Of a stretch of 64,000 nt of DNA, positions 17,640 through 47,150 are shown one piece after another. The stretch is from the NCBI GenBank assembly GCA_023150835.1, contig JAKLKB010000004.1, positions 62,001 through 126,000 on the forward strand, written 5' to 3'. The notes below the pieces were generated by a model that did not search any database, was not told the DNA's origin, and was given only the letters and a program-made list of their open reading frames with translations. Both the position numbers and the translations under genes were made by a program. The DNA comes from Myxococcota bacterium. Its GTDB lineage: Bacteria; Myxococcota_C; UBA6777. The first letter of the stretch is position 1, and each line of letters starts with the position of its first letter.

Positions 17640-17913
17640 TTATACGATGGCCGAGGGGTTGGCTGATCTCAACTGTTTTTCAAAATGCCCGTTGTTGCAG
17701 CCTTTGTGGTCGGAGCCTGAATTTGTGGATCTGCACGCCAAGGTTCAGGCCCGCGTCCAAAAAGCACGACAACTCGCTTGAGCCGCTGTTGGATATCGGG
17801 CCTTGCCTTGTTGGGCGTCTTGTGCAAGGTTGCAGGAGAGTTCAGTTTTTGGGTGCCGTAATGCCTTCAAGCAGCGTGGCATCGGGAAAGTCGGCACGAT
17901 ATCGGAGCGTCGC

Positions 17914-19632
17914 ATGGAACGAAAAAAGGATCAGCGCAACAAGCCTTGGCAGCGGGTGTTTGTAAGCGTGTGGGTGTGTGCGGTTTGTATCGGGATGTGT
18001 GGCTTTGCGCAAAAAGCAAGAGCATGGGGGGAGATCGAAGACGACGGATTCCCTTTGTGGCAGGAGGTGTTGCAGTTGGTTCTCACCAACCGCGTTCGAC
18101 AGGATACTGCCCAAGCCAAAACGGATTACAGCGATCCGAACGCTCCCAAAAACAAGACGTGGAAAGACAAGGATTATCCCGTCTGCCCGCCTGTGGTCTT
18201 TCACAACATCGTCGCAAAAGCCGCACGGCTACACAGCCGCGATATGGACGTGCAAAACTATTTCGATCACACCGCCAAAGACGGATCCTCTCCCGGAGAG
18301 CGCGTCAAGCGGCAGTTGGGAACGAGCGTCCCCACAGGCGAAAACATTGCAGTGGGCTACGGCACCTCCGAAAAAGTCACCATCGGCTGGCTCAATAGCG
18401 ATGGACACCGCGAGAATATCTTTAACTGCACATGGACACACTTGGGCGTCGGTTTTAGCAAGATCAACCGCGATTATTGGACGCAAAACTTTATCAAGAT
18501 CAGCTTGGAGCGCCCGTTGGTCCACGCAGGCATCCATTTTCCGCAGTCCGTCTCAGCAGGCCAAGACGTGAACTTCTTTGCGAACTACTACCACAAAAAC
18601 GGCGATGCGCCGCAAGAAGCCAAAGTCGTCGTCAATGGCCGATGCTACGATATGCGCGTTGAATACGGCACCGCAGGCAACGGAAACTACGCGCTCAAAG
18701 CCCAACTCTCCGAAGGCTGCCAAAGTTATTACTTCCGCTTTCGTGGTTCAGACGGCAAACTAGAGCTTTTTCCGACACGCGGATCGTACCAAGTCGGCGT
18801 TGGTGCAGAGTGCGACAAGCTCTATATAGCCAACCAAGTGGACGCCCAATGCGATCAAGGTTGCAGCAAAGACGACCAATGCGCTTCACACCAAGAATGC
18901 AAAGAAAGCAAGTGCGTCGATACGCGCCGTTGCAAGGGCAACGCAGACTGCCCCACAGGTACTTCGTGCCGAGAACAACATTGCCAACCCAACGCCAAGA
19001 TGTGGGAAGCCTGTGGCGCAGGGACTTCGTGTACTTCTCCGCTCTCGTGTATGAAGCATAACGGAGAAGATCGCTGTAGTGTCTCTTGTCAAAAGTATGT
19101 ACCCTGCCCGCAAGGTTTCGCCTGTGCATTAAGTGGAACCCAAGGCGTCTGCACACCGCGAACCGATTGCAGCAGCGACTTCGATTGCGCCGCCTACCAC
19201 ACTTGCAAAGAAGGCAAGTGCATCGAACGTGGGCCTTGTGTCAAACACGCCGATTGTCCGCAAGGAACGATGTGCAAAGAAAAACTCTGCATCGATCCCG
19301 GGACGCTCGGCGTCGCCTGCCAAGGCGAGCGCGACTGCGACACAGGCTCGTCCTGCATCCCGTGGAGTATCGAAGGACAAACGCAGCGCGCTTGTGGTTT
19401 TGCTTGCAAGGCCGCCGAAGATTGCCCCAAAGGATCGACTTGTAAGGAATTTGGAGGAGGAGACAGCTATTGTTTCGGAAAGCCAGAACCTCCACCTCCC
19501 CCCCAGAAAAAGCCCGAAGAACCGCCCAAAACAGGCTGCTCTTCTCGCCCTGTTCCCGTCGACTCCAGCTTCGCCCTTTTCGGCTTGTTGTTCTTGCTGT
19601 TGCGCAAACGCCGAAAGGCTCGCTCTCTTTGA
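17914..19632 (+). CDS. CAP (SCP)-domain surface protein with Cys-rich repeats and MYXO-CTERM-like sorting signal
   Basis: GENIAVG, WLNSDGHRENI, LGVGF..YWTQNF; Cys repeats; C-terminal TGCSS...FALFGLLFLLLRKRRK. Confidence 0.85.
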   Translation: MERKKDQRNKPWQRVFVSVWVCAVCIGMCGFAQKARAWGEIEDDGFPLWQEVLQLVLTNRVRQDTAQAKTDYSDPNAPKNKTWKDKDYPVCPPVVFHNIVAKAARLHSRDMDVQNYFDHTAKDGSSPGERVKRQLGTSVPTGENIAVGYGTSEKVTIGWLNSDGHRENIFNCTWTHLGVGFSKINRDYWTQNFIKISLERPLVHAGIHFPQSVSAGQDVNFFANYYHKNGDAPQEAKVVVNGRCYDMRVEYGTAGNGNYALKAQLSEGCQSYYFRFRGSDGKLELFPTRGSYQVGVGAECDKLYIANQVDAQCDQGCSKDDQCASHQECKESKCVDTRRCKGNADCPTGTSCREQHCQPNAKMWEACGAGTSCTSPLSCMKHNGEDRCSVSCQKYVPCPQGFACALSGTQGVCTPRTDCSSDFDCAAYHTCKEGKCIERGPCVKHADCPQGTMCKEKLCIDPGTLGVACQGERDCDTGSSCIPWSIEGQTQRACGFACKAAEDCPKGSTCKEFGGGDSYCFGKPEPPPPPQKKPEEPPKTGCSSRPVPVDSSFALFGLLFLLLRKRRKARSL

Positions 19633-22703: not shown

Positions 22704-22964
22704 AGCCGAGACCTCCACGCAAAGCACGCGCAGGCAAATTGTCGACTGCGTAATTCCTACAGACCTTGGACGAGGGAAATGCACGAAAGAAACGACGTGC
22801 AGAGGCGTCCTAGCACAAGCGAAAACAGGACGCAAGATCACAAAAGAGCCAAGGCATCGAAGCAAGCCCCCTTGTCAAGATCGCAGCGATCCCACACAAC
22901 AAGCGCCGCCTTTTTCGGGGGCGCAGCTCGCGTCGTGGATCTGTTGGCGAGAGGAGAAAGAAAC

Positions 22965-24155
22965 ATGAAGGCAGTGGTACGGTTGAAAACGGCAGGAGAG
23001 CGTTCGGTAGAGCGCCGCCACCCGTGGCTTTTTACGGGGGCATTGGACAAGATCGAAGGAAAGCCGAAGAGCGGTGAAACGGTCGGCGTATTGAATACAA
23101 AAGGCGAGATCTTGGGGTTTGGAGCGTATTCGCCCCAGTCACAGATCGCCGTTCGGATGTGGCATCATTCGCCCGCTCGTGGGGTCGATCATGCTTTTTT
23201 TATGGAGCGTTTTCGTGCAGCGATCACGATGCGCTCGAAAGTGTTGCCGCCCGATGCACAAGGCGCGTGTCGGCTGATCTATGGTGAATCCGATGGATTT
23301 CCCGGTCTGATCGTCGATCGATATGGAGATTATCTGGTGATGCAGTGCCTTTCGGCAGGAGCGGAGTTTTGGAAGCGAGCATGGGCGGAGATGTTGCAAT
23401 CCTTGTTGGAAGTGCGCGGAGTCTTCGAGCGATCGGAAAGCGATGTCCGAAAGAAAGAAGGATTGGACCAAGTGACGGGCGTCTTGAAAGGAGAAGCGCC
23501 ACCAAATCCGCTCACGATCGAAGAGGGCGGATTGCGCTATCTCGTGGATGTGTATGAAGGCCACAAGACGGGATTTTACCTCGACCAGCGGGCCAATCGT
23601 GCGATGCTGCGGTCTTTGGTGCAGGGCGCAGAAGTGCTGAATTGCTTTGCTTATACGGGAGGGTTTGGTTTGTCCGCGCTCAAGGGAGGGGCCGCGCACG
23701 TTACGCAGATCGAAGCCTCCGCAAAAGCCCTTGAGGTCGCTCGTCAGCACGTCGCCTTCAACGGCTTTGACGCCCAACGCAGCACACTGATCGAAGGCGA
23801 TGTGTTTGCGGAGCTTCGGCGGTTTCAGAAGGAACAGCGGATGTTTGATGTGATCGTCCTCGACCCACCGAAGTTTGCAGAGTCCAAGGCCCAACTCGAT
23901 CGAGCCTGCCGAGGCTACAAAGATATCAATCTTCAAGCCTTCAAGCTTTTGCGCCCGGGAGGCTTGCTGTTGACCTTCTCTTGTTCAGGACAGATGACGA
24001 CGCCTCTGTTTCAAAAGATCGTGGCGGATGCTGCGCTAGATGCCGGACGCACCGCCCAGATCTTGCGGCGGCTTGAACAAGACGTCGATCACCCGACGCT
24101 GTTGTCCTTCCCCGAAGGAACTTACCTCAAAGGCTTGTTGTGTCGGGCAGAATAA
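22965..24155 (+). CDS. rlmI: 23S rRNA m5C1962 methyltransferase RlmI-like
   Basis: RRHPWLFTGA PUA domain, ESDGFPGLIVDRY, GHKTGFYLDQR, LNCFAYTGGF, LDPPKF, DHP..FPEGTYLKG. Confidence 0.92.
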   Translation: MKAVVRLKTAGERSVERRHPWLFTGALDKIEGKPKSGETVGVLNTKGEILGFGAYSPQSQIAVRMWHHSPARGVDHAFFMERFRAAITMRSKVLPPDAQGACRLIYGESDGFPGLIVDRYGDYLVMQCLSAGAEFWKRAWAEMLQSLLEVRGVFERSESDVRKKEGLDQVTGVLKGEAPPNPLTIEEGGLRYLVDVYEGHKTGFYLDQRANRAMLRSLVQGAEVLNCFAYTGGFGLSALKGGAAHVTQIEASAKALEVARQHVAFNGFDAQRSTLIEGDVFAELRRFQKEQRMFDVIVLDPPKFAESKAQLDRACRGYKDINLQAFKLLRPGGLLLTFSCSGQMTTPLFQKIVADAALDAGRTAQILRRLEQDVDHPTLLSFPEGTYLKGLLCRAE

Positions 24156-24210: not shown

Positions 24211-25815
24211 CTATTCTTCTTCTCGAAACAACACAAACCACCCAAACACCGCCGTTCCAAGCAAGACAATCAACGCCAGCAACCAACGCAGCGAGTCCAC
24301 CCAAGGCGCATTGCCCAAGATCACCCGCAAGCCAAAGATCGCAGGAAGTGAAGTCGCCAAAAATCCACCGAGCCGCATACTCCATTCGATCTGTTGCCGC
24401 GAACGATCTTGGAGGTATGTGTTGAGTTCGGAGGATTGATCGTTGACTTCACGCATCAGCTTTTCGACCTCAAAGACGCCTTGCCACCGACGCCACAGCA
24501 CCAAGCCGCGTTCGCGGTGCGTGATCTGGCTAAACCAACTCTGGTTCTTAAACAGCAACACGGCTTTGCGCAAACGCCGCAAGATCTGTTGGCTCTCCCA
24601 ACTCAACGCCGTCAACGAACGGATATCCGAAAGTCGTTCAAACAACAGCAGCAACGCCGTTCGTTGGAGCGAAGCCAACAAAAAGATATCGAAATAATAA
24701 CTGCCGTGATATTGGCCGAGAAACACGCGATTGAACTCGTCCACATCAAAAGCCACAAGGGAACTGCCTTCTTTCGAGATGCTTTGCCAACGCCGTGTCA
24801 GCCATTGTTGCGTCTCATCTTCGTTCTCCGAGCCGATACGACCGCTCAGATCGTCATCAAATCGCGAAAAAGCATACCGTTCAAGCTGTCGCCGAGCGCG
24901 CTCACGATCCGCCAAGCAGGTCCGATGATCGATGCAGCTAAAGGTGTACACCATCATCCGATCATCGTAGCTCGGGCGCACAGGAAGTTGCAAACGTTGT
25001 TCGTAGCGATGGGGCGGCGCGATCGGTCGCAACGCATCAAAGTCTGCAAGCAGATGCGCAAGAAGCTGGTTGATCTGAAAAGATTGATCTGCCACCGACA
25101 TCGTTGGCATCGAAAATCCCCGATAGATCGGTGCAAGCAATCGAAAAAACAAGGTTGCGTGCATCTGATCCATATAGGTCGGACGATCCCCCGAACAGCG
25201 CAATCGAAAGATCAAAAAGCCCACCCGTAGGCTGCTTACAAGCAATTGTACTTCGTCCAACAGCATCGCGTGACGGTAGTTGCGTTTGTCGCGGTCGTCT
25301 TGCCCGGACAACCAAAAAGGCAAACAGCCTTGTGCATCGGTGGGGCCAAGCGTATCCAGATCAAGCCGATAATGCTGCAACGTCGGTACAGAAAAATCCT
25401 CATGCGGATCGAATCCTTGGCGATCTTCATACAGCGAAGGGAAAAGAAATCTCTTCACATAAGGCAAGAAATATTCTGTGCGATCCACGTCTTCGGGATC
25501 GTCTTCTGAAAAAACGCGCCGCTTCCAACGCGACGATTTACGCAGGCGCATAAAGCTGTTGCCATCGTCCTCATGGAAAGTGAACGGAAACACACAAAGG
25601 CTGTAATGCCCCGTCAGTTGGAACGGCTGCTCGCCTTTTTCCGCCTCCAAGGTCTCGCTCAAACACGCCCCGGGCGCACAAGGTAGCGCGCTCTCCTCGG
25701 TGGATGAGGCGGTTGCGTCCTCCAGCGGTTTTGCACAGATCGCGCAGCGCTTGCCGCGCTTTGGCGTTGGATTCGTCGGATGCGAGAGCGCAGCAGAGAT
25801 CAGATCGTCGTTCAA
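24211..25815 (-). CDS. CorA-like 2-TM membrane protein resembling type III CRISPR-associated CorA effectors
   Basis: HYSLCVFPF, EYFLPYV, VGFLIF, DDRMMVY, LLASLQRTALL, FKNQSWFSQIT..ERGL.LW, long stalk helix, two C-terminal TMs; no GMN motif. TTG start after AAGGAGG. Confidence 0.7.
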   Translation of the reverse strand: MNDDLISAALSHPTNPTPKRGKRCAICAKPLEDATASSTEESALPCAPGACLSETLEAEKGEQPFQLTGHYSLCVFPFTFHEDDGNSFMRLRKSSRWKRRVFSEDDPEDVDRTEYFLPYVKRFLFPSLYEDRQGFDPHEDFSVPTLQHYRLDLDTLGPTDAQGCLPFWLSGQDDRDKRNYRHAMLLDEVQLLVSSLRVGFLIFRLRCSGDRPTYMDQMHATLFFRLLAPIYRGFSMPTMSVADQSFQINQLLAHLLADFDALRPIAPPHRYEQRLQLPVRPSYDDRMMVYTFSCIDHRTCLADRERARRQLERYAFSRFDDDLSGRIGSENEDETQQWLTRRWQSISKEGSSLVAFDVDEFNRVFLGQYHGSYYFDIFLLASLQRTALLLLFERLSDIRSLTALSWESQQILRRLRKAVLLFKNQSWFSQITHRERGLVLWRRWQGVFEVEKLMREVNDQSSELNTYLQDRSRQQIEWSMRLGGFLATSLPAIFGLRVILGNAPWVDSLRWLLALIVLLGTAVFGWFVLFREEE

Positions 25816-25917
25816 GGTAGCCTCCTTACAGATCGCAGGACTTAGGGAGAAAAGGGACAGGTTGGATTTTTTGTGGGGCGAGGTGTCAAACTCCGCCATA
25901 GACTCTCGCCCCTTGGC

Positions 25918-26030
25918 CACCTATCGGCGAGCTTGCAGAGGTACATTTCGTGTGACTCCCTGAGGCGGCTGCGCCCATCGTACCGCAATCGCACCTATCG
26001 GCGAGCTTGCAGAGGTACATTTCGTGTGAC
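25918..26030. repeat. Two perfect 39-bp direct repeats separated by a unique 35-bp spacer
   Basis: CACCTATCGGCGAGCTTGCAGAGGTACATTTCGTGTGAC at 25918-25956 and 25992-26030. Confidence 0.92.
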
Positions 26031-26128
26031 CCTCACCCCCCAACCCCCTCTTCTTTCCCCTCGCGGCAGCAGCGAGGCTTTGCGAGCGTCGCAGGGAGAT
26101 GGGTGTCGCGCAGCGACGGGGTGAGGGT
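26029..26128. repeat. CCCTCACCCC-type palindromic element
   Basis: 11-bp inverted repeat ACCCTCACCCC...GGGGTGAGGGT enclosing smaller hairpins. Confidence 0.7.
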
Positions 26129-26217
26129 GAGCCAGCACGTACCCCTCCTGTCGGGAGTGATTCTTTTCAAGCGTAATCTACCCACCGAGAAAAAAGAAGC
26201 CCCATCCCTGAAATCGC

Positions 26218-28230
26218 TTACATCGGCGCAGGGAGCCACACCACAAACGACTCTTCCAACAAGATCCATAACGCCGAAGCCATCGTATCTTCCCACCAAT
26301 CTTCGATAGCCTTTCCTGAAGCCACCGCTTGTAGCACAGTTTCCATCTCCGCATCCAACGGCAACAGCTTCATCGCCTCTGCGTGATGGATCACCGCCAA
26401 CATCCGAGGCGCAGCTCCCGCGCTTTCCTGCGCAGACGCCGCACGAAAACGCTCCCACAACAACGCATCCATCTCTTCTTGCGACTCTGCCTCGGGCCGC
26501 TCGTCCAAGACTTCTTCGGCCAACCACCCCGACCACAGCGCATAGCGCAAGGTCCGATGCAACCGCAAAACCCCCGCCGCTTCCAACAGATCCCCCACAT
26601 CGTCAGGCAACGCTGCGAAGTCTTCGGCCTCTTCGTCTTTACGCGGCTCTTCTTGCGACCACGCCAAAAACCGCGCCATCTCACGCCAAGGAGCCGAAAC
26701 ATCCGAACGGGACGCCAGCCACGCAGACCACCGCACCATCAACCGCCCATGCTCCCCAAACGCCGAAGAATGCGCAAACTCCGCAAGGCTCTCTTCGGAC
26801 AACACAGCCCCTCGCTGCGTCAACGAACCATCCAAAAAGAACCACGATGCTGCACTTTGTATCCCTTCGCGCAAGATCGCAGCCCCGCCCCCCAACCATG
26901 CTTCTCGCGACTTGCCCGTGATCGCTTGCATCTGCGGCCACATCACCCCCGTTGCACCAAGGCCGATCGCACGCTCACCCATCCCCGCCATCCGCGCTGG
27001 AACGGCGGCCCGAACCGCTTCTTCCCATGCCGAAAACACCCCATATCCCGACGTCAGATCCGCATCCGCAGACAACAACGCCCGACAACGCGCTCCCATC
27101 GACTCCAACACAGGCCACAAGATCCGCTCGGCTCGCTGGGCCTGCATCGAACCTTCCTCCATCCATTCCAACGCAAGCAACGTCCGATACCCAAGATCCT
27201 GCAACAATCGCCGTTGCAACATCCGTTGACACTTCCCTGCATCGATCTCGATATCTCCCATCAATAGGCCCGATGCGACACTCAAATGGTGCTCCATCAA
27301 CCCCGCCACCGTAGAAAAAACATCCACCCCTTCAAGCAAAAACAATTCGACCCACGAGCCAAAGCTCCATGCCGTCAAACGCGGCCAATGACCGTAGACA
27401 TAACCCATCGCATCGCTCGATGCATCCAGATATCCCCGTGGCGAGACGATCCGACGACCGCTCTCCAACTCCCGAAGACAAACCGACCACTCCGAAAAGA
27501 AATGCTCGCGTGCCGATTCTGCATGACGCAGTGCGTCTTCACGCGCTCCTACCCGATCGTACCCCGCCTCACGCTGCCAATAGGCCCGCCCTTCCGCCTC
27601 ACACGCCACGCAAAAAGATCGCAACGGCCCACCATGCCGATGTTCCGCACAACGCGGTCGAAAAACCTCGTCCCAACCGTACCAATGCACCACCGGCAAC
27701 AACTCGTTCACTCGCGCCGAAAGATACAGCGAAAAACGATTCATCTGCGGATGCCAAAAAAATCGCAACAACCCATGCAACAATTCATGCGCACGCCATT
27801 TTCTCCGATAATTCGGGTTATACGGCGCAAGCGGTGCCTCTTGAAAAAAAGAAAAGTACTTGGGTTCCATCCGCACCCCCGCCCCCCACACAGGCACCGT
27901 CTCACCTTCCCAAACCGCACGCTCTGGCTCTAAACCCTCGGGCATCGCGATCGCACCGCGCAGTTCGTGATGGAAAAATCCTCGCCCCTCTCCCGCAGAC
28001 CACAACCCCACCCGCGCACTCATCGGCGTCACCAATAGATCCAACGCCGGTACACCCAAACCTGCAAACACTTCTTCCAATCCCGCAACAGGGCCCGCTT
28101 CGATCGTCGAAGCGACACTCTCCACCCACGCCTCTGATGACGGCCACCACGACGAAGGCGGCACCTCTAATCTCAACTTTTCTCTCTGCTCTTTCCCCGA
28201 TAATCCCGAACTCAACCGAATCTTTTCCAT
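26218..28230 (-). CDS. Hypothetical protein with HExxH and Cys/His motifs
   Basis: 670-aa ORF with GGAG RBS; RAHELLH with a downstream Glu (NELLP); CAEH...CVAC. Confidence 0.75.
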   Translation of the reverse strand: MEKIRLSSGLSGKEQREKLRLEVPPSSWWPSSEAWVESVASTIEAGPVAGLEEVFAGLGVPALDLLVTPMSARVGLWSAGEGRGFFHHELRGAIAMPEGLEPERAVWEGETVPVWGAGVRMEPKYFSFFQEAPLAPYNPNYRRKWRAHELLHGLLRFFWHPQMNRFSLYLSARVNELLPVVHWYGWDEVFRPRCAEHRHGGPLRSFCVACEAEGRAYWQREAGYDRVGAREDALRHAESAREHFFSEWSVCLRELESGRRIVSPRGYLDASSDAMGYVYGHWPRLTAWSFGSWVELFLLEGVDVFSTVAGLMEHHLSVASGLLMGDIEIDAGKCQRMLQRRLLQDLGYRTLLALEWMEEGSMQAQRAERILWPVLESMGARCRALLSADADLTSGYGVFSAWEEAVRAAVPARMAGMGERAIGLGATGVMWPQMQAITGKSREAWLGGGAAILREGIQSAASWFFLDGSLTQRGAVLSEESLAEFAHSSAFGEHGRLMVRWSAWLASRSDVSAPWREMARFLAWSQEEPRKDEEAEDFAALPDDVGDLLEAAGVLRLHRTLRYALWSGWLAEEVLDERPEAESQEEMDALLWERFRAASAQESAGAAPRMLAVIHHAEAMKLLPLDAEMETVLQAVASGKAIEDWWEDTMASALWILLEESFVVWLPAPM

Positions 28231-36677: not shown

Positions 36678-39623
36678 ATGATCCGATGGAAACGACACCT
36701 TGGGCTGCTTGGCCCCTTGGTGCTGTGGTGGTGGATGGCCGCTTGTGGCTCTCCCATCGGCACTTGCCAACAAGACAGCGAATGTAGCGGCGGCCAAAAG
36801 TGCCTCGAAAAGCTCTGCCGTTGTCCCGATGCTTCCGCTCGTTGCGCAAATACTTGTGTTTCTTTGCTCAACGACAACGCCCATTGCGGCGCTTGCACCT
36901 GCAAGTCGGGCGAAAAGTGTGCGGCAGGTCGTTGTGTCGTCGCCTGTCCTGCCCTCACTCCCGACGCTTGCGGCGATGCCTGTATCTCCCTTCAAACCAA
37001 CGTCAACCATTGCGGCTCTTGCAACAAAGCCTGTTCTGCCGGTCAAACCTGTCAAAATGGTCAATGCCTTTGTCCTTCGGGCCAGCGCGATTGTGGCGGT
37101 GCTTGCGTCGATGTCGTGCTTTCGCCCAAACATTGCGGCGCTTGCAACAACGCCTGTCCAAGCGGCCAATCCTGCGCGATCGGCGAATGTGTTCAACAAT
37201 GCCCCGCATCGACTCCCACGCTTTGCCTTGGAAGCTGCGTCGATATGACCCGTGATGCCGCCCATTGCGGCGCGTGTGGAAGCGCCTGTCCTACGGGTCA
37301 ACGCTGCCAAGAAGGGCGCTGCACATGCCCCGATGGAAGCACCCTATGCGCGGGACGTTGCGTCGATCTACAAAGCAGCGGCCAGCATTGCGGTGTGTGC
37401 GACAATCCCTGCGCAAGCGGCAGCGTTTGCGCCGAAGGTCTGTGCATCCCGTCCTGTCCGAGTGCGACCTCCGCTTCTTGTTTTGGTGGATGCGTCTCGA
37501 CGCAGACCAACGCCGATCATTGCGGTGGATGCGGGAAAGCTTGCAAAGAAGGAGAAGTCTGCAACAGCGGAAGCTGCGCTTGTCCGAGCGGTATGCTGTC
37601 GTGCGATGGAGCCTGCCTCGATCCAAAAGTCAATCGCCTACACTGCGGGGCGTGCAACAGCCTGTGCAAAGCAGGAGAAGTCTGTGCAGGCGGTAGTTGC
37701 GTGCAATCGTGTCCTACCGTCACCAACACCGCCTGTTATGGAGGATGTTTCGACATCCAACAAGACGCCCGTCATTGCGGCAAATGCGGCATCGCTTGTC
37801 GCGTCGGCCTTGTTTGCAAGGCGGGTGTGTGTACTTGTCCAAACGAACAAGCCTCTTGTCGTGGCCGTTGCACCGATCTCCAAACCGACAACCAAAACTG
37901 CGGTGGGTGCGGCAAGATCTGCCGTTCCACCGAGTCTTGCGACAAAGGCCAATGCGTCTTACGTTGCACCTCTCCGACCCAAGCCTGCAACGGCGCTTGT
38001 GTCGATACCAAAACCAACAACCAACACTGCGGAAGTTGCGGGAATGGCTGTGCGAGTACCCAACAATGCAAAGATGGAAAATGCGTTTGTGGCGAAGGGC
38101 GCGCAGATTGTGGCGATGGGCGATGTGTCGATACACTCTATAATGCCCGTCACTGCGGAGCTTGCAACAATGCTTGCCAAAGTGATCAGACCTGTGCGCA
38201 AGGCAAATGCTTGTGCCGCCCAGACGGCTGTCACTTTGCGCTGCACAGCCCGGGCAGCGATCCCATGAGCGAAGCGCGTATCGTGCAGATGGCCGATGGT
38301 CGCAACAAAGAAGTCATCTATGCCTTTTCGTATCGAGGCGGAGCTTTTACCTTCGCAGGAAAAACCTTCCCTGCCTCCCCGAGCGCACAATCTTTTGCGA
38401 TCGCCGCGCTCGACGAAAACAACAAGCTCCTCTGGAGCCAAGACGTCGCTGGAAAAGGCAACCAAGGAGCCAAAACCACCGATCTCTTCGTCGCTCCCAA
38501 CGGAGATATCTTCGTCTTCGGCCAATTCACCAGCGAGCTTACCCTCGGTGCGCAAACGCTCAAACCTACAGACTCCTCCGTACAGCCGTACGACCTCTTG
38601 GGATTCATCGCCAAACTCAACGCCCAAGGGCAATGGCAAGGCGCACAGATCCTTGAGATATCACGGCTCCCCTCGTTGGAAAGCCCCTTTGTTGAACTCC
38701 ATTCGATAGCCCGCGCAAGCAACGGGGATCTGTACCTGAGTGGTTCTTATCAAGGAAAACTGCGCTTTCTGACCTCTTCTATCGATAATCTCGCACGCCA
38801 AGCCTTTGTCTTGCGCATCAACAGCCAACTCCAAAGCCCGCTTTTTGCGCGAACAATATCTGGTGCAACCCCCAGCACCGTCGACTACACCAGCCTTGTC
38901 ATCGACGAAAACGACAAAACCTACCTCCTCGGCCAAGCCAACGGAGAAGTGGTGTTTGGCACACACAAACTCACCCCCAGCAGCACCAAAGCTCCAACTG
39001 GCTTTTTGGTGCGCTTCGATCTCCAAGTCGCCGATCCTTGGGTGGTCGCTCCTTATGCTTTGCCGCCGTGGCCTTTTTCAAACAACCATGCCAACGTGGC
39101 GACGGCAGCGACGGGCGGCGGTGTGGTGTGGGCCGGCTCCTACACAAAAGCTTTCCAGATCAGCAACATCAGACGCCCTGATCCCCCACGCTCCACCGCA
39201 TACATCGCCTCCATCGACGGCAGCGGCACCATGCGCTGGCTAAAAGAATCGACCGGCCCCTCCGACACAGAAAGCTCTTTCGTTCGCCGCTCCCCCACCA
39301 AGGAACTCCAATGGGTCGTTCAAGCCAACGATGCCATACAATTCGGTCGATCCACCCACCCCTATCCGTACCAAGGAGGCGACGCCCCCCATCATGTCGC
39401 TTTTTTCCTCAACGAGAACGGCGATCTCCAAGCCTCAAAAACCCTGTGGCTCGGTGAATTATTACTCTCTGGCCTCCGTATCGGGATCCGCTCCGTCCTC
39501 TTGCGCTCCGAAAGTGCTTTGATCGGCGGCTCCATCCAAGGCAGCGGCTTCACTCTCTACGGCAAAACATACCAACCTACCGGAACAGAAGACGTTTTTC
39601 TTTTCCGAAGCTTCTACCGCTAA
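36678..39623 (+). CDS. Cys-rich (Stig1/MXAN_6577-like) repeat lipoprotein with C-terminal beta-propeller-like domain
   Basis: Lipobox MAAC; about 13 repeats of CVD...D..HCG.C...C..G..C..G.C; beta-rich C-terminal half. Confidence 0.85.
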   Translation: MIRWKRHLGLLGPLVLWWWMAACGSPIGTCQQDSECSGGQKCLEKLCRCPDASARCANTCVSLLNDNAHCGACTCKSGEKCAAGRCVVACPALTPDACGDACISLQTNVNHCGSCNKACSAGQTCQNGQCLCPSGQRDCGGACVDVVLSPKHCGACNNACPSGQSCAIGECVQQCPASTPTLCLGSCVDMTRDAAHCGACGSACPTGQRCQEGRCTCPDGSTLCAGRCVDLQSSGQHCGVCDNPCASGSVCAEGLCIPSCPSATSASCFGGCVSTQTNADHCGGCGKACKEGEVCNSGSCACPSGMLSCDGACLDPKVNRLHCGACNSLCKAGEVCAGGSCVQSCPTVTNTACYGGCFDIQQDARHCGKCGIACRVGLVCKAGVCTCPNEQASCRGRCTDLQTDNQNCGGCGKICRSTESCDKGQCVLRCTSPTQACNGACVDTKTNNQHCGSCGNGCASTQQCKDGKCVCGEGRADCGDGRCVDTLYNARHCGACNNACQSDQTCAQGKCLCRPDGCHFALHSPGSDPMSEARIVQMADGRNKEVIYAFSYRGGAFTFAGKTFPASPSAQSFAIAALDENNKLLWSQDVAGKGNQGAKTTDLFVAPNGDIFVFGQFTSELTLGAQTLKPTDSSVQPYDLLGFIAKLNAQGQWQGAQILEISRLPSLESPFVELHSIARASNGDLYLSGSYQGKLRFLTSSIDNLARQAFVLRINSQLQSPLFARTISGATPSTVDYTSLVIDENDKTYLLGQANGEVVFGTHKLTPSSTKAPTGFLVRFDLQVADPWVVAPYALPPWPFSNNHANVATAATGGGVVWAGSYTKAFQISNIRRPDPPRSTAYIASIDGSGTMRWLKESTGPSDTESSFVRRSPTKELQWVVQANDAIQFGRSTHPYPYQGGDAPHHVAFFLNENGDLQASKTLWLGELLLSGLRIGIRSVLLRSESALIGGSIQGSGFTLYGKTYQPTGTEDVFLFRSFYR

Positions 39624-45166: not shown

Positions 45167-45456
45167 TTATCCATCCGATGCCACCTCATGCCTCGTGATC
45201 TTCGACCTCTCGCGCCGCCCTCAACGCCTCGCTGCCGCTCGCCTACAAAGCCACCTTTGGCAGAAAAAAAGAACGACGCTACAAAACAGCCCGCCAAATC
45301 AAACGTACTTATCGGGGTTCTTCCACCCAGACGCGAGCTCTCTTGACAACGATCATCCTGATGGAATATAAACAACACAGTTCGCACAAACGTTGTATCA
45401 AAGTTCTTAATTTCATCAGAAATTATACTAAAGCGTGTATGCCTACAGTGAACAAT

Positions 45457-46092
45457 ATGATTCCAAAAGACTTAAAGATTTACCACATCGTTCATCTGGA
45501 CAGACTGGTGTCGATTATCAGCGAGGGCTGTTTGTGGAGTGATGCGGCAGGTCAAGCAAAAAATTTGGGCGGAACCATGATCGGAATGTCCCATATCAAA
45601 CAGAGGCGTATGACCAACAGCATATCAAGTCACCAAGGATTAACCGTCGGACAATGCGTGCCGTTCTACTTCTGCCCACGTTCTATCATGCTCTACATCA
45701 TTTCACAACAAAGCCATGAGAATATCTCGTATCGAGGTGGGCAACAACCCATTATTCACCTGCAAGCTGATCTGAATCGGGTTATCTGCTGGGCACAGCA
45801 GAACAATAAACGGTGGGCTTTTACAGATTCAAACGCAGGGTCTTTCTACTTCAACGATTATTGCACTTTAGGTGATCTGAAACGAATTGATTGGAACGCG
45901 GTAAATGCCTACTCATGGTCGCGATGTAAAGAACAAAAACAGGCTGAATTTCTACTGGAAGAACAATTCCCGTGGACGCTGATTGAAGCGGTCGGCGTCT
46001 ATTCGCAGACGCAAGATCAGCAAGTCAGAGCTAGATTGAATTCAGCAGGGCATCGACCGCCCATTTCAATTCAGCGCGACTGGTATCACTAA
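45457..46092 (+). CDS. darT: DNA ADP-ribosyltransferase toxin DarT (DUF4433)
   Basis: KIYHIVH, VPFYFCPRSIMLY, FTDSNAG, KQAEFL (catalytic Glu), C-terminal WY. Start at 45439 or 45457. Confidence 0.92.
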   Translation: MIPKDLKIYHIVHLDRLVSIISEGCLWSDAAGQAKNLGGTMIGMSHIKQRRMTNSISSHQGLTVGQCVPFYFCPRSIMLYIISQQSHENISYRGGQQPIIHLQADLNRVICWAQQNNKRWAFTDSNAGSFYFNDYCTLGDLKRIDWNAVNAYSWSRCKEQKQAEFLLEEQFPWTLIEAVGVYSQTQDQQVRARLNSAGHRPPISIQRDWYH

Positions 46093-46106
46093 AGGAGGAC
46101 GCTCAG

Positions 46107-47150
46107 GTGATTACCTACAAAACAGGCGATATTTTTAAAGAAGAAGCAGATGCGATAGTCAACACGGTAAATTGTGTAGGCATCATGGGGCGTGGCATCG
46201 CGTTGCAGTTCAAGAAGTGGTTTCCCGAAAACTTCAAAGTTTACGCGGCTGCCTGCAAACACAAGAAAGTCGTGCCCGGAAGAATGTTTGTGCATGAAAC
46301 AGGCTCCCTGATGGGGCCTAAATACGTCATCAATTTTCCGACCAAACGGCACTGGCGTGGAGCCAGCCGCATGGAAGATATCGAGTCTGGCCTTCAAAAT
46401 TTGGCAGAGGTTATACCGACCCTGAATATCGAATCCATCGCTCTTCCGCCGCTCGGCTGCGGGTTAGGCGGGCTAAACTGGGATGAGGTTCGAGAGCGTA
46501 TCGAAAATACGCTTTCTCATTTGTCAGATACGCGAGTCATCGTTTTTGAACCTCAAGGGGCACCCGAAGCGAAAGAGATGGCAAAGAACCGCAAGGCACC
46601 GAAGATAACCGCCGGCAGAGCTGCGTTGGTCGAATTGGTGCATCGCTACCTTGGCGGTCTACTCGATCCTTTTATTTCTCTGCTTGAGATTCAAAAACTA
46701 CTGTATTTTTTGCAAGAAAGTGGTGAACCTCTCCATTTGAACTATCAGAAAAATATCTATGGTCCTTATGCTGAAAATTTGCGCCATGTATTGAATGCCG
46801 TTGAAAACCACCTGCTTTCTGGCTACGCAGATGGTGGCGACAGACCAGACAAAGAACTCAGGCTGGTTTCGGGAGCCTACGAAGCCGCGTCAAAGTTCAT
46901 GGCGGAGCATCCCCAGACAAAGCAGCGTTTCGATAAAGTTTCTGATCTAGTTGAAGGCTTTGAATCTCCCTTTGGGATGGAGCTACTTGCGACAGTTCAC
47001 TGGGTTGCCACAAAAGAAAGTGCCAAAACGAAAGATCGGGTCGTCTCAGGAGTTCACGGATGGAATGATCGTAAGAAGCAATTTACGCCTCGCCAGATTG
47101 GGTTGGCTTTCGACGTTTTATCAGAAAAAGGCTGGATTGATCAAGATTGA
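46107..47150 (+). CDS. darG: Macrodomain antitoxin DarG
   Basis: VNTVNCVGIMGRGIALQFK, INFPTKRHWR, PPLGCGLGGL, QKLLYFLQ, YGPYA, ELLATVHW; AGGAGG RBS. Confidence 0.94.
   Translation: MITYKTGDIFKEEADAIVNTVNCVGIMGRGIALQFKKWFPENFKVYAAACKHKKVVPGRMFVHETGSLMGPKYVINFPTKRHWRGASRMEDIESGLQNLAEVIPTLNIESIALPPLGCGLGGLNWDEVRERIENTLSHLSDTRVIVFEPQGAPEAKEMAKNRKAPKITAGRAALVELVHRYLGGLLDPFISLLEIQKLLYFLQESGEPLHLNYQKNIYGPYAENLRHVLNAVENHLLSGYADGGDRPDKELRLVSGAYEAASKFMAEHPQTKQRFDKVSDLVEGFESPFGMELLATVHWVATKESAKTKDRVVSGVHGWNDRKKQFTPRQIGLAFDVLSEKGWIDQD

Follow-up and report, generated by a model that had tools for sequence, protein, structure and literature searches.

The window analysed here, a stretch of 64,000 nucleotides, carries a gene for a CorA-like membrane protein with an N-terminal zinc ribbon, which neighbours the genes for an RlmI-like methyltransferase and for an unassigned 670-aa protein. 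The gene, its upstream elements and the segments of its product are arranged as follows:

25837..26133, minus strand: insertion of about 297 bp directly upstream of the ribosome site, recognized by alignment as missing in the closest relative (L002)
25821..25827, minus strand: Shine-Dalgarno sequence AAGGAGG, from sequence reading, 6 nt upstream of the TTG and kept in L002
24211..25815, minus strand: coding sequence of the zinc-ribbon CorA-like protein (ORF call; 534 aa plus stop; TTG start)
25663..25746, minus strand: N-terminal four-cysteine zinc ribbon (C24, C27, C46, C51), from Cys conservation in 32 sequences
24700..25632, minus strand: sensor-like alpha/beta domain on the cytoplasmic side (residues 62-372), whose homology to the N-terminal domain of CRISPR-associated CorA is shown by PADLOC and hhalign
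25141..25143, minus strand: R225, invariant; in CRISPR-type CorAs the aligned residue is the first Arg of an 'RR' motif (GRRIYP)
24958..24966, minus strand: D284-D285-R286, an invariant DDR aligning with the DDRM/DERM of CRISPR-type CorAs
24502..24552, minus strand: FKNQSWFSQITHRERGL, the top-conserved motif of the clade, found superfamily-wide in the looser form F..N..WF.Q.TN...G
24313..24390, minus strand: membrane helix 1 with the final part of the stalk helix before it, about residues 476-501 (hydropathy; AF2 helix 450-494)
24325..24333, minus strand: G495-L496-R497 at the CorA G-M-N position, aligned with the FGMNV of Arcobacter CorA and the GMN of other CRISPR-type CorAs
24226..24285, minus strand: membrane helix 2, about residues 511-530 (hydropathy; AF2 helix 504-531)

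On comparative grounds the reading frame is a genuine gene, since it has 102 homologs that are 37-96% identical to it, and the columns of a 32-sequence alignment average 48% identity. The TTG is likely to be its start codon, given the ribosome-binding sequence 6 nt upstream and the length of 535 aa in close homologs; counted from the first GTG, the frame would span 24211-25920 on the minus strand and encode 569 aa. Within the upstream insertion, an exact 39-nt direct repeat occurs twice (at 25918-25956 and 25992-26030) and nowhere else in the genome; in sludge runs, the segment 26057-26103 of the insertion stands out by a depth excess of 10-20x and numerous loose ends. A sigma-70 promoter scan upstream of the gene returned no sites, and no sigma-54 consensus was seen by eye in the same upstream sequence. 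RNA-Seq contigs from one sample span the gene at 100% identity, with poor coverage of 26191-27000, and provide at most a weak hint of transcription, because contigs from RNA libraries do not prove it.

In the protein, the zinc ribbon is followed by a cytoplasmic domain of about 310 residues and a stalk helix that leads to two membrane helices at the C-terminus. All the motifs on which the first-pass annotation had built its reading (HYSLCVFPF, EYFLPYV, VGFLIF, DDRMMVY, LQRTALL, FKNQSWFSQIT and ERGLVLW) are found in the translation, and so is the extra N-terminal CxxC...CxxxxC that it had reported, with the spacing C24-x2-C27 ... C46-x4-C51; across 32 sequences, no change is seen at C24, C27 or C46, and conservation of C51 reaches at least 90%. 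Judging from the structural model, the ribbon probably sits on a flexible tether formed by residues 1-61, which are predicted with low confidence (pLDDT 37-55); the sensor-like domain (residues 62-372) is modelled at a pLDDT of 82.6. Both R225 and D284-D285-R286 are invariant in 32/32 clade sequences, with loss of the second Arg of the RR motif, and FKNQSWFSQITHRERGL aligns through hhalign with FLNKLYFKEVTAQDQGIEL of the Arcobacter NrN-CorA protein. The stalk helix and two transmembrane segments proposed earlier are borne out by hydropathy and AF2 helices alike, with hydrophobic C-terminal segments at about 476-501 and 511-530 (hydropathy peaks at 482-503 and 505-533) following a long helix. 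The earlier remark that the protein lacks the GMN Mg2+ motif also holds, G495-L496-R497 standing in its place, and residue 497 varies among the 32 clade sequences (D in 13, E in 9, P in 4, R in 3, G in 2 and N in 1). A four-copy complex prediction for residues 360-532, run from a 15-row alignment, gave 'no answer' with a score of 0.01 and counts neither way on oligomerisation.

Profile comparisons place the protein with the CorA effectors of type III CRISPR systems. The PADLOC CorA model PDLC01043 matches it with an E-value of 4.1e-27 and 93 bits over profile positions 34-428 of 457, and the family profile aligns by hhalign with the NrN-CorA fusion of an Arcobacter plasmid (probability 91.8%, E 7e-7, 383 columns, residues 71-501) in a register where DDRM, the R of RR, F.N..F..TxxxxG and FG(M/L) all coincide. 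By these alignments, the window protein is genuinely homologous to the type III CRISPR CorA family along its full length, N-terminal sensor domain included, as the first-pass annotation had proposed from motif order. The alternative placement that it had allowed for, among ordinary CorA/ZntB transporters, does not apply: Pfam assigns no family at E<=0.01, PF01544 included, and the canonical CorA of the genome is a separate gene, the sole match of a whole-genome PF01544 search (213 bits, contig C160). By these sequence criteria, the protein is not an ordinary CorA/ZntB. NCBIfam holds no family for it, and a PDB sequence search with it gave no matches. Structure searches place it less sharply. 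With the full model, the best Foldseek matches are all CorA structures, at weak scores (E 3e-3, TM about 0.15), and VIA-align returned an uninformative list of mostly helical hairpins; the model of residues 62-372 yielded no Foldseek hit at E<=1e-3, and its best VIA match of any kind had a Z of 4.3, the soluble domain of A. fulgidus CorA ranking 29 with a Z of 3.1. Its nearest ESM Atlas clusters are labelled 'hypothetical', one of them carrying PF01544 on 23% of its members, which is a lead only. A tblastn search of plasmids matched just the C-terminal 134 residues, on three Arcobacter plasmids (E 2e-5), which served as a reference of verified gene context rather than as near relatives, and no relative was found among 2.9 million viral contigs.

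To our knowledge, the sole known receptor of SAM-AMP is the CRISPR-associated CorA, for whose sensor domain the PDB copy searched here yielded no solved structure. The window protein resembles the type III-B CorA, SAM-AMP-activated in B. fragilis (PDLC01043/PDLC01174), in its two-part build, with a uniquely folded sensor domain at the N-terminus and a stalk plus two membrane helices at the C-terminus, and shares with it the motifs PF, W, EYF.P, GVGFL, R (of RR), DDR and F.N..WF.Q.TN...G. It differs in its score on the PADLOC model (93 bits, against 250-400 for true members), in its added zinc ribbon, in the G-L-R that it carries where many of those proteins have G-M-N, and in a gene that lies without adjacent cas10, NrN, DEDD or lyase, in carriers that are mostly Cas10-less. 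The NrN-CorA fusions of type III-B loci (Arcobacter plasmid CP134857, WNL35163.1; A. butzleri type) align along their entire CorA part, but WNL35163.1 has 793 aa, carries a DHH phosphodiesterase at its N-terminus and has its gene immediately upstream of cmr/cas10/cas1/cas2, whereas the window protein has the zinc ribbon in place of the DHH domain and no such context. The CorA of type VI-B1 RT-Cas1 systems of Prevotella muris is a CRISPR-type CorA outside type III and without Cas10, reported to conduct divalent cations; compared here by its description, it differs in belonging to a CRISPR locus (cas13b) of the Bacteroidota, and no zinc ribbon is reported for it there (PMC11662929). The housekeeping CorA/ZntB proteins (PF01544; T. 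maritima CorA structures) have the C-terminal stalk helix and two membrane helices in common with the window protein, which has no PF01544 match, no G-M-N and a larger, probably different cytoplasmic domain.

The closest homologs form a sharply bounded group. At or above 450 bits against the family HMM, 106 stored proteins are recovered, the lowest of them a fragment at 482, and the next protein scores 232; the group is monophyletic in a FastTree phylogeny of 112 rows (starred support of 100, stem 0.98). The zinc-ribbon motif is present in 87/88 of its members with a covered N-terminus and in 0/88 other superfamily members. By these sequence-based measures, it is a discrete clade, not named before, within the CRISPR-type CorA-like superfamily and is termed here the ZnR clade. 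Its gene is found in 5/6 genomes of the small GTDB phylum to which the window belongs, which together with the 48% mean column identity points to a clade that is conserved rather than engaged in an arms race. In the Planctomycetota, the gene occurs in 1/401 sampled genomes, that one being the centre itself, and at two loci (L040 and L041) it is interrupted by a recombinase element; this patchiness and this disruption fit an accessory or defence-like gene. Among the nearest outgroups (208 bits; tree) is the CorA-like protein P0116 (L013, L043), encoded in a cassette that runs Mrr, HD, REase-ARP, a protein of about 1120 aa, the CorA-like protein and a zinc-ribbon protein of about 860 aa. Like the clade gene, it is encoded without cas10, and its genome has no Cas10 match; it differs in having the ribbon on the downstream gene instead of its own and in forming a tight three-gene operon within a region resembling a defence island. 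The window's genome encodes no homolog of its partners, and a PDB sequence search with the two partner proteins from L013 gave no matches.

Gene neighbourhoods were compared at 22 clade loci (the window, L002-L012, L031-L038, L040 and L041), with 140 flanking ORFs scanned at the 21 non-window loci, PADLOC run on 91 of them (L002-L012) and the window ORFs scanned separately. Neither cas genes nor genuine defence genes or defence islands were found beside the clade gene at any locus (0/22 in both cases). The PADLOC matches among the 91 ORFs are generic only (methyltransferase, AAA+ sigma-54 activator, Ser/Thr kinase, WD40, radical SAM), and the neighbours are housekeeping genes such as those for tRNA synthetases, RuvB, UvrC, MoaA/E and RlmI. 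Synteny with RlmI is kept within close kin, beyond which no neighbour is conserved. At L005 and L011, the clade gene has a divergent sigma-54 activator gene upstream, an adjacency judged to be chance because such genes are common in those phyla. In the window, Pfam and PADLOC detect no Cas family in any ORF and no SAM-AMP-degrading enzyme, DEDD and lyase included, next to the CorA-like gene; a DarT/DarG pair lies 19.5 kb away from it. The earlier observation that no cas genes are nearby is therefore confirmed, all Cas10 and Cas1 matches of the genome falling on other contigs, but the suggestion that the gene belongs to an undescribed defence module finds no support in these neighbourhoods. The first-pass annotation had itself named a lack of association between homologs and defence genes as speaking against its reading, and that lack is what the 22 loci display.

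Several explanations compete for a protein with these properties. One takes it for a diverged member of the CorA/ZntB superfamily that moves divalent metals in the ordinary, ungated way, its likeness to CRISPR-type CorA being functionally meaningless. The weak full-model Foldseek matches, all of them to CorA, and the housekeeping gene context are consistent with such a role, as is the reported movement of Zn2+, Ni2+ and Cd2+ by a CRISPR-type CorA linked to type VI-B (PMC11662929). Against it stand the failure of Pfam to recognize a CorA domain, the replacement of the G-M-N Asn (by D or E in 22/32 members) and the canonical CorA already present in the genome. The 310-residue domain, moreover, is of the CRISPR-CorA sensor type, with a Z of only 3.1 to a CorA soluble domain, and an invariant R and DDR occupy, by inferred mapping, the sites described as needed for B. 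fragilis CorA signalling (PMC10600005), so that an ungated transporter appears quite improbable. Self-contained abortive infection, in which the ribbon or the sensor would detect a phage component directly, open the pore and stop the infected cell with no separate synthase involved, is unlikely on balance. Several observations favour it: descent from a radiation in which the characterised proteins act as antiviral effectors, the toxicity in E. coli described for B. fragilis CorA when expressed alone (PMC10600005), the patchy occurrence in the Planctomycetota, the mobile element that disrupts the gene in L040/L041, the Mrr/HD/REase-ARP cassette of the nearest outgroup in its Cas10-less genome, and the DarT/DarG pair in the window. 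The lack of any defence island among the 22 loci with their housekeeping neighbours, the fact that 5/6 genomes of the window's phylum carry the gene and that close kin keep it syntenic with RlmI, the high sequence conservation and the empty search of viral contigs all argue the other way.

The remaining alternative, activation in trans, follows the first-pass annotation in supposing that the channel is opened by a messenger (SAM-AMP or other) made elsewhere, here by the Cas10 of the genome's type III-B (C111) or type III-D (C44) system. Besides a complete Cmr1-6/Cas10/Cas6 locus on C111 and the III-D locus on C44, the genome holds four cas1 genes (contigs C149, C183, C237 and C138) and four long CRISPR arrays. 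Both Cas10 proteins keep an intact GGDD and have no N-terminal extension for an HD domain, starting where the HD-less Arcobacter Cas10 starts, and with two such type III systems trans-activation is possible in this genome. No known ancillary effector was recognized within 20 kb around either locus, a gap that a trans-acting effector would fill, and NCBIfam has no family for the unassigned genes beside the two cas10 genes; both loci are located at contig ends, however, so their own effectors may be unassembled. The retention of R225 and the DDR motif is in keeping with a messenger of this kind, whereas the lack of an adjacent SAM-AMP-degrading enzyme departs from the obligate pairing described for CRISPR CorAs (PMC10600005). 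NrN was also not found in the genome with the PADLOC DHH_CorA model, a weak point against trans-activation, since no control genome matched either. In a three-sequence alignment at about 20% identity, the position at which the CorA-linked Arcobacter Cas10 carries Asp (presumed D70 equivalent) is occupied by Asn in the III-B Cas10, which would weakly suggest an acceptor site of the cOA type. Across carrier genomes, Cas10 (TIGR02577) is present in 5/13 and escapes detection in 8/13, six of the latter among the eight carriers outside the window's phylum, yet the protein is strongly conserved throughout; the background in the 401-genome Planctomycetota sample is 58/401 at E<=1e-3 and 25/401 over the cut-off. 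Within the window's phylum, the three fullest carriers (93-94% complete) all have Cas10, and co-occurrence is possible there because the two carriers without it are less complete (64% and 86%). Trans-activation hence cannot explain the ZnR clade as a whole, and the earlier proposal finds no support as a general rule; for this genome alone it is possible but distinctly unlikely.

The reading preferred here, with a probability of roughly 0.45, is that the gene encodes a stand-alone, CRISPR-independent, signal-gated channel of the inner membrane that belongs to the CRISPR-CorA lineage. The ZnR clade as a whole looks CRISPR-independent, and such a reading has a precedent in the type VI-B-linked CRISPR-type CorA, which in a setting without Cas10 is described as transporting metals in proteoliposomes (PMC11662929). 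In the stand-alone channel, R225 and D284-D285-R286 are probable counterparts of residues whose mutation abolished immunity by B. fragilis CorA, for which D219/D220 are stated to be required (PMC10600005); the mapping onto R152/R153 and D219/D220 of that protein was made through motif and spacing in stand-in sequences rather than on its own sequence. The protein would oligomerise as CorA does, as a pentamer by analogy, and its cytoplasmic domain would bind a small ligand, probably of the adenine or SAM type, in the pocket marked by R225 and D284-D285-R286. Ligand binding would then open the pore, letting cations pass or depolarising the membrane, and gating might be modulated by a partner held via the tethered zinc ribbon. 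The channel would not be Mg2+-selective, its trigger would be something other than a Cas10 product in most carriers, and its role would more likely lie in a stress or physiological response than in a classical defence-island system. A more specific version, which would have the SAM-AMP sensor domain used outside CRISPR and gated by a SAM- or adenine-derived or other new messenger from an unlinked non-Cas10 enzyme, with the ribbon docking that enzyme or a regulator, is a long shot.

A conserved clade of this lineage without cas10 or a degrading enzyme, in a housekeeping context, suggests either that its sensor reads another signal or that the channel has been domesticated for physiology. For annotation, a CorA-profile match outside a CRISPR locus should not by default be labelled a CRISPR effector or enter the tally of defence genes. 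Ligand work on residues 62-372 would help clarify what is recognized by the CorA sensor fold, and, should the sensor prove to be used outside CRISPR, SAM-AMP-like signalling would be a general second-messenger pathway in the Planctomycetota and their neighbours, reaching beyond CRISPR.

The 534-residue window protein, a CorA-like product with an N-terminal zinc ribbon, has no assigned Pfam or NCBIfam family and its sequence matches no PDB chain; both 'CorA-like' models of PADLOC, which derive from CRISPR-associated CorAs, match it (E 4e-27 and 3e-21). The first aligns over profile positions 34-428 of 457, so that the match spans the sensor domain and the membrane part. Since this model also matches in five of 14 control genomes, independent support was sought. 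A family profile run against 1.84 billion representative proteins recovered 1399 relatives (E<=1e-3), some scoring 250-400 bits on the PADLOC CorA models and one carrying the PADLOC 'DHH_CorA' nuclease domain. A group of 800-900 residues among them, with weak N-terminal DHH matches in 5/13 scanned long (>700 aa) proteins, is of the NrN-CorA fusion type described, in the accessible text of PMC10600005, for type III-B loci. Searching plasmids with tblastn identified such a fusion in Arcobacter (plasmid CP134857, WNL35163.1), annotated CorA and lying directly upstream of cmr/cas10/cas1/cas2. Profile alignment with hhalign pairs window protein residues 71-501 with Arcobacter residues 258-695 (91.8% probability, E 7e-7, 383 columns), placing FFRLLAPIY against FGRRIYPQY, YDDRMMV against IIDDRMFV, FKNQSWFSQITHRERGL against FLNKLYFKEVTAQDQGI and FGLRV against FGMNV. 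With these motifs in register against a homolog of verified context, the order that the first-pass annotation had matched to type III CRISPR CorA effectors is borne out by computation.

The open frame, counted from GTG, occupies 24211-25920 on the minus strand, and translation probably begins at the TTG at 25815, which is preceded by AAGGAGG (25821-25827) and gives a length close to the 535 residues of the closest homologs. Every motif quoted in the first-pass annotation occurs in the resulting translation. The following anatomy emerges from 32 aligned homologs together with an AlphaFold model (mean pLDDT 82.8, pTM 0.79):

Residues 1-61: poorly ordered N-terminal segment with four conserved cysteines, C24-x2-C27 ... 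C46-x4-C51
Residues about 62-372: alpha/beta domain
Up to residue 494: helices, the last (450-494) a 45-residue stalk
C-terminus: two hydrophobic helices

R112, R225, D284, D285, R286, N424, Q425 and G437 are invariant in 32/32 sequences. G495-L496-R497 occupies the G-M-N position of CorA channels and lacks its Asn; the third residue of this site is D/E in 22/32 clade sequences and N in 1/32. Because G[MILV]N near the C-terminus is also missing in 68/88 proteins of the wider superfamily, its absence is not particular to the clade. Immunity is lost when Bacteroides fragilis CorA carries R152A/R153A or D219A/D220A, according to the available text of PMC10600005. Judged by the motifs and their spacing in CRISPR-type stand-ins, these positions would correspond to R225(-L226) and D284-D285, in which case the window protein would retain three of the four residues.

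The zinc-ribbon proteins form a sharply bounded clade: 106 stored proteins reach at least 450 bits on the family HMM (the lowest, a fragment, scores 482) and the next protein scores 232. In a FastTree phylogeny of 112 rows, rooted at the midpoint only and comprising 24 of the 106 members (sampled to limit tree size) and all 88 other profile-covering proteins, with fragments excluded, the clade is a single branch (starred support of 100, stem 0.98), nested in a group of equal starred support with PADLOC-high CRISPR CorAs and DHH-fused proteins; its nearest neighbours there, with support of just 85, are unfused proteins of 460-530 residues. The four-cysteine motif is present in 87/88 clade members with a covered N-terminus versus 0/88 of the others, and is apparently missing from a basal trio (P0093, P0094 and P0107).

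The first-pass annotation had noted the absence of cas genes nearby, and the 64-kb window indeed contains no Cas family. The immediate surroundings of the window gene are as follows:

22779-24155: RlmI-like rRNA methyltransferase gene, convergent with the window gene
24211-25815, minus strand: window gene, preceded by a 670-residue gene without family match

Elsewhere the window carries unremarkable genes, among them those for ExbB/ExbD/TonB, a TonB-dependent receptor, an amylase, RlmL, a hybrid histidine kinase and NiSOD. Clade loci were collected from species-representative genomes (11) and metagenomes (11, with L039 lacking any flank and L040 nearly identical to L041). An all-against-all comparison of neighbours across the window, the 11 genome-derived loci and L013, the locus of a related CorA-like protein, found RlmI recurring in three loci and no partner conserved beyond close kin. 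Flanking ORFs were scanned with Pfam (91 + 49) and PADLOC (the first 91), with one metagenome-flank scan taking 60/66 ORFs and leaving out six from L041 that duplicate L040. They encode tRNA synthetases, RuvB, UvrC, MoaA/MoaE, AIM24 triplets, peptidases, sigma-54 activators, Ser/Thr kinases and similar proteins, of which PADLOC matched only generic domains. With cas genes in 0/22 clade loci, this survey does not bear out the defence module that the first-pass annotation proposed, and viral contigs yielded no relative. In L040 (7001-10028) and L041 (3053-6080), the clade member breaks off near residue 425, at the point where a gene for a large serine recombinase (Resolvase/Recombinase/Zn_ribbon_recom domains) starts on the opposite strand; an integrative element has apparently disrupted the clade gene. 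Genes for Fic, AAA_25 and DUF4062-TPR proteins are found close by in L040.

Several other features of the window were recorded. DarT is a ssDNA thymidine ADP-ribosyltransferase, and a DarT/DarG toxin-antitoxin pair (DarT E 4e-61, followed by a Macro-domain gene) occupies 45343-47150, 19.5 kb from the window gene. The closest relative, L002, lacks about 297 bp (25837-26133) that in the window lie immediately upstream of the ribosome site of the window gene. This stretch contains two exact direct repeats of 39 nt each (25918-25956, 25992-26030), which occur nowhere else in the genome, and a segment (26057-26103) where sludge DNA and RNA contigs show a 10-20x excess of depth and numerous loose ends. 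It resembles a small dispersed repeat or a MITE-like insertion into the promoter region. Most 2-kb intervals between 26001 and 64000 show strongly negative GC skew (mostly -0.2 to -0.4; -0.05 to -0.09 at 36-38, 44-48 and 56-60 kb) despite genes on both strands. Two secreted-type proteins are unusual for a bacterium, one of 981 aa with many STIG1-like Cys-rich repeats (36678-39623, E 5e-52) and one of 609 aa with CAP/DUF7107 domains (17803-19632).

The clade gene is found in 5/6 genomes of the window's own phylum; among 401 genomes sampled from the phylum to which another carrier, G006, belongs, only the sample centre itself has it. Carriers are labelled Myxococcota/Myxococcales, Planctomycetia, Gemmataceae, Pirellulales and Fuerstiella, plus two Alcaligenaceae MAGs. 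The public runs containing the stretch are from activated sludge. In one sample, RNA-Seq contigs match the window gene over its full length at 100% identity, which is no more than a faint indication that it is expressed.

P0116, a CorA-like protein among the nearest outgroups of the clade, lies in a conserved cassette (L013:3939-14042, with identical DNA in L042; L043:913-10981, with the same match figures in L044) ordered as Mrr_cat nuclease, HD protein, REase-ARP nuclease, a ~1120-aa protein without family, P0116 and a ~860-aa protein whose N-terminus bears a double zinc ribbon. Upstream of the cassette is a sigma-54 activator, and L013 additionally has an integrase downstream. Between L013 and L043, identity is 77-90% for flanking genes versus just 45-57% for the three-gene core. 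The L013 genome, G010, shows no Cas10 match, and the cassette could represent a defence system that acts through a CorA-like effector and needs no Cas10.

A role as the cell's Mg2+ channel is ruled out for the window protein, since the sole PF01544 gene of its genome (213 bits, contig C160) is a different one. Foldseek matches to the full model are all CorA structures, and weak (E 3e-3). The sensor domain modelled separately (pLDDT 82.6) gives nothing at E<=1e-3, and with a second aligner every chain stays at Z <=4.3 (CorA soluble domain, Z 3.1), in agreement with the 'unique fold' ascribed to CRISPR CorA in the consulted portion of PMC10600005; fold searches thus contribute little to the assignment.

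The first-pass annotation had envisaged activation in trans, and cas10 is indeed present in the window genome (7.56 Mb, 93% complete), at two loci off the window contig:

C111:62361-82360: type III-B locus, with complete Cmr1-6/Cas10/Cas6 and genes of 368 and 133 aa without family just upstream of cas10
C44:4524-24523: type III-D locus, with a 324-aa gene without family just upstream of cas10

Four cas1 genes and four long CRISPR arrays are likewise located off the window contig, and the surroundings of the III-D locus include a HipA-like pair and a LonB/LonC-like protease. GGDD is retained in both Cas10s, neither of which has an N-terminal extension for an HD domain, and no known ancillary effector was recognised in the 20 kb covering either locus, although each locus reaches a contig end. 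In this genome, activation in trans is therefore conceivable. NrN was not found there, weak evidence because the search also matched no control genome. As a further weak indication, a thin three-sequence alignment pairs Asn of the III-B Cas10 with an Asp of the CorA-linked Arcobacter Cas10 that is taken to be the D70 equivalent; Asp at this position is said to mark SAM-AMP synthases. Scored by TIGR02577, which among controls matched only genomes known to have type III systems, Cas10 is present in just 5/13 carriers, against the proposal: 3/5 in the window's small GTDB phylum (the two lacking it are 64% and 86% complete) and 2/8 in other lineages, the background being 58/401 at E<=1e-3 and 25/401 over cut-off in the phylum to which one of these eight belongs. 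Absence from six large genomes through assembly accident is unlikely, and the clade protein is equally well conserved in these, so that its function cannot in general depend on Cas10. As an account of the window protein in this genome, a type III effector activated in trans is unlikely.

The reading tentatively preferred, at a probability of roughly 0.45, is a gated channel that works independently of CRISPR and is triggered by something other than a Cas10 product. A self-contained abortive-infection sensor-effector is a doubtful alternative. A plain metal transporter is improbable. The CorA of type VI-B1 loci conducts Zn2+, Ni2+ and Cd2+, as the available text of PMC11662929 states. Under the preferred reading of a gated channel, the window protein would oligomerise in the manner of CorA, a small ligand would bind its cytoplasmic domain at the R225/DDR site, binding would open a cation-conducting or depolarising pore, and the tethered zinc ribbon may serve as a clade-specific regulatory or docking module. 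In the accessible parts of the literature, CorA is treated as a CRISPR-locus signature (PMC10600005, PMC11229360, bioRxiv 10.1101/270033, PMC13294483, PMC11662929, PMC12255297, PMC12669027) and a stand-alone or zinc-ribbon CorA-like clade is not described, although the supplementary CorA trees of PMC11229360, 10.1101/270033 and PMC11662929 could include such sequences. The type VI-B1 CorA, as far as the available text of PMC11662929 goes, provides a published precedent for the CorA family leaving type III control.
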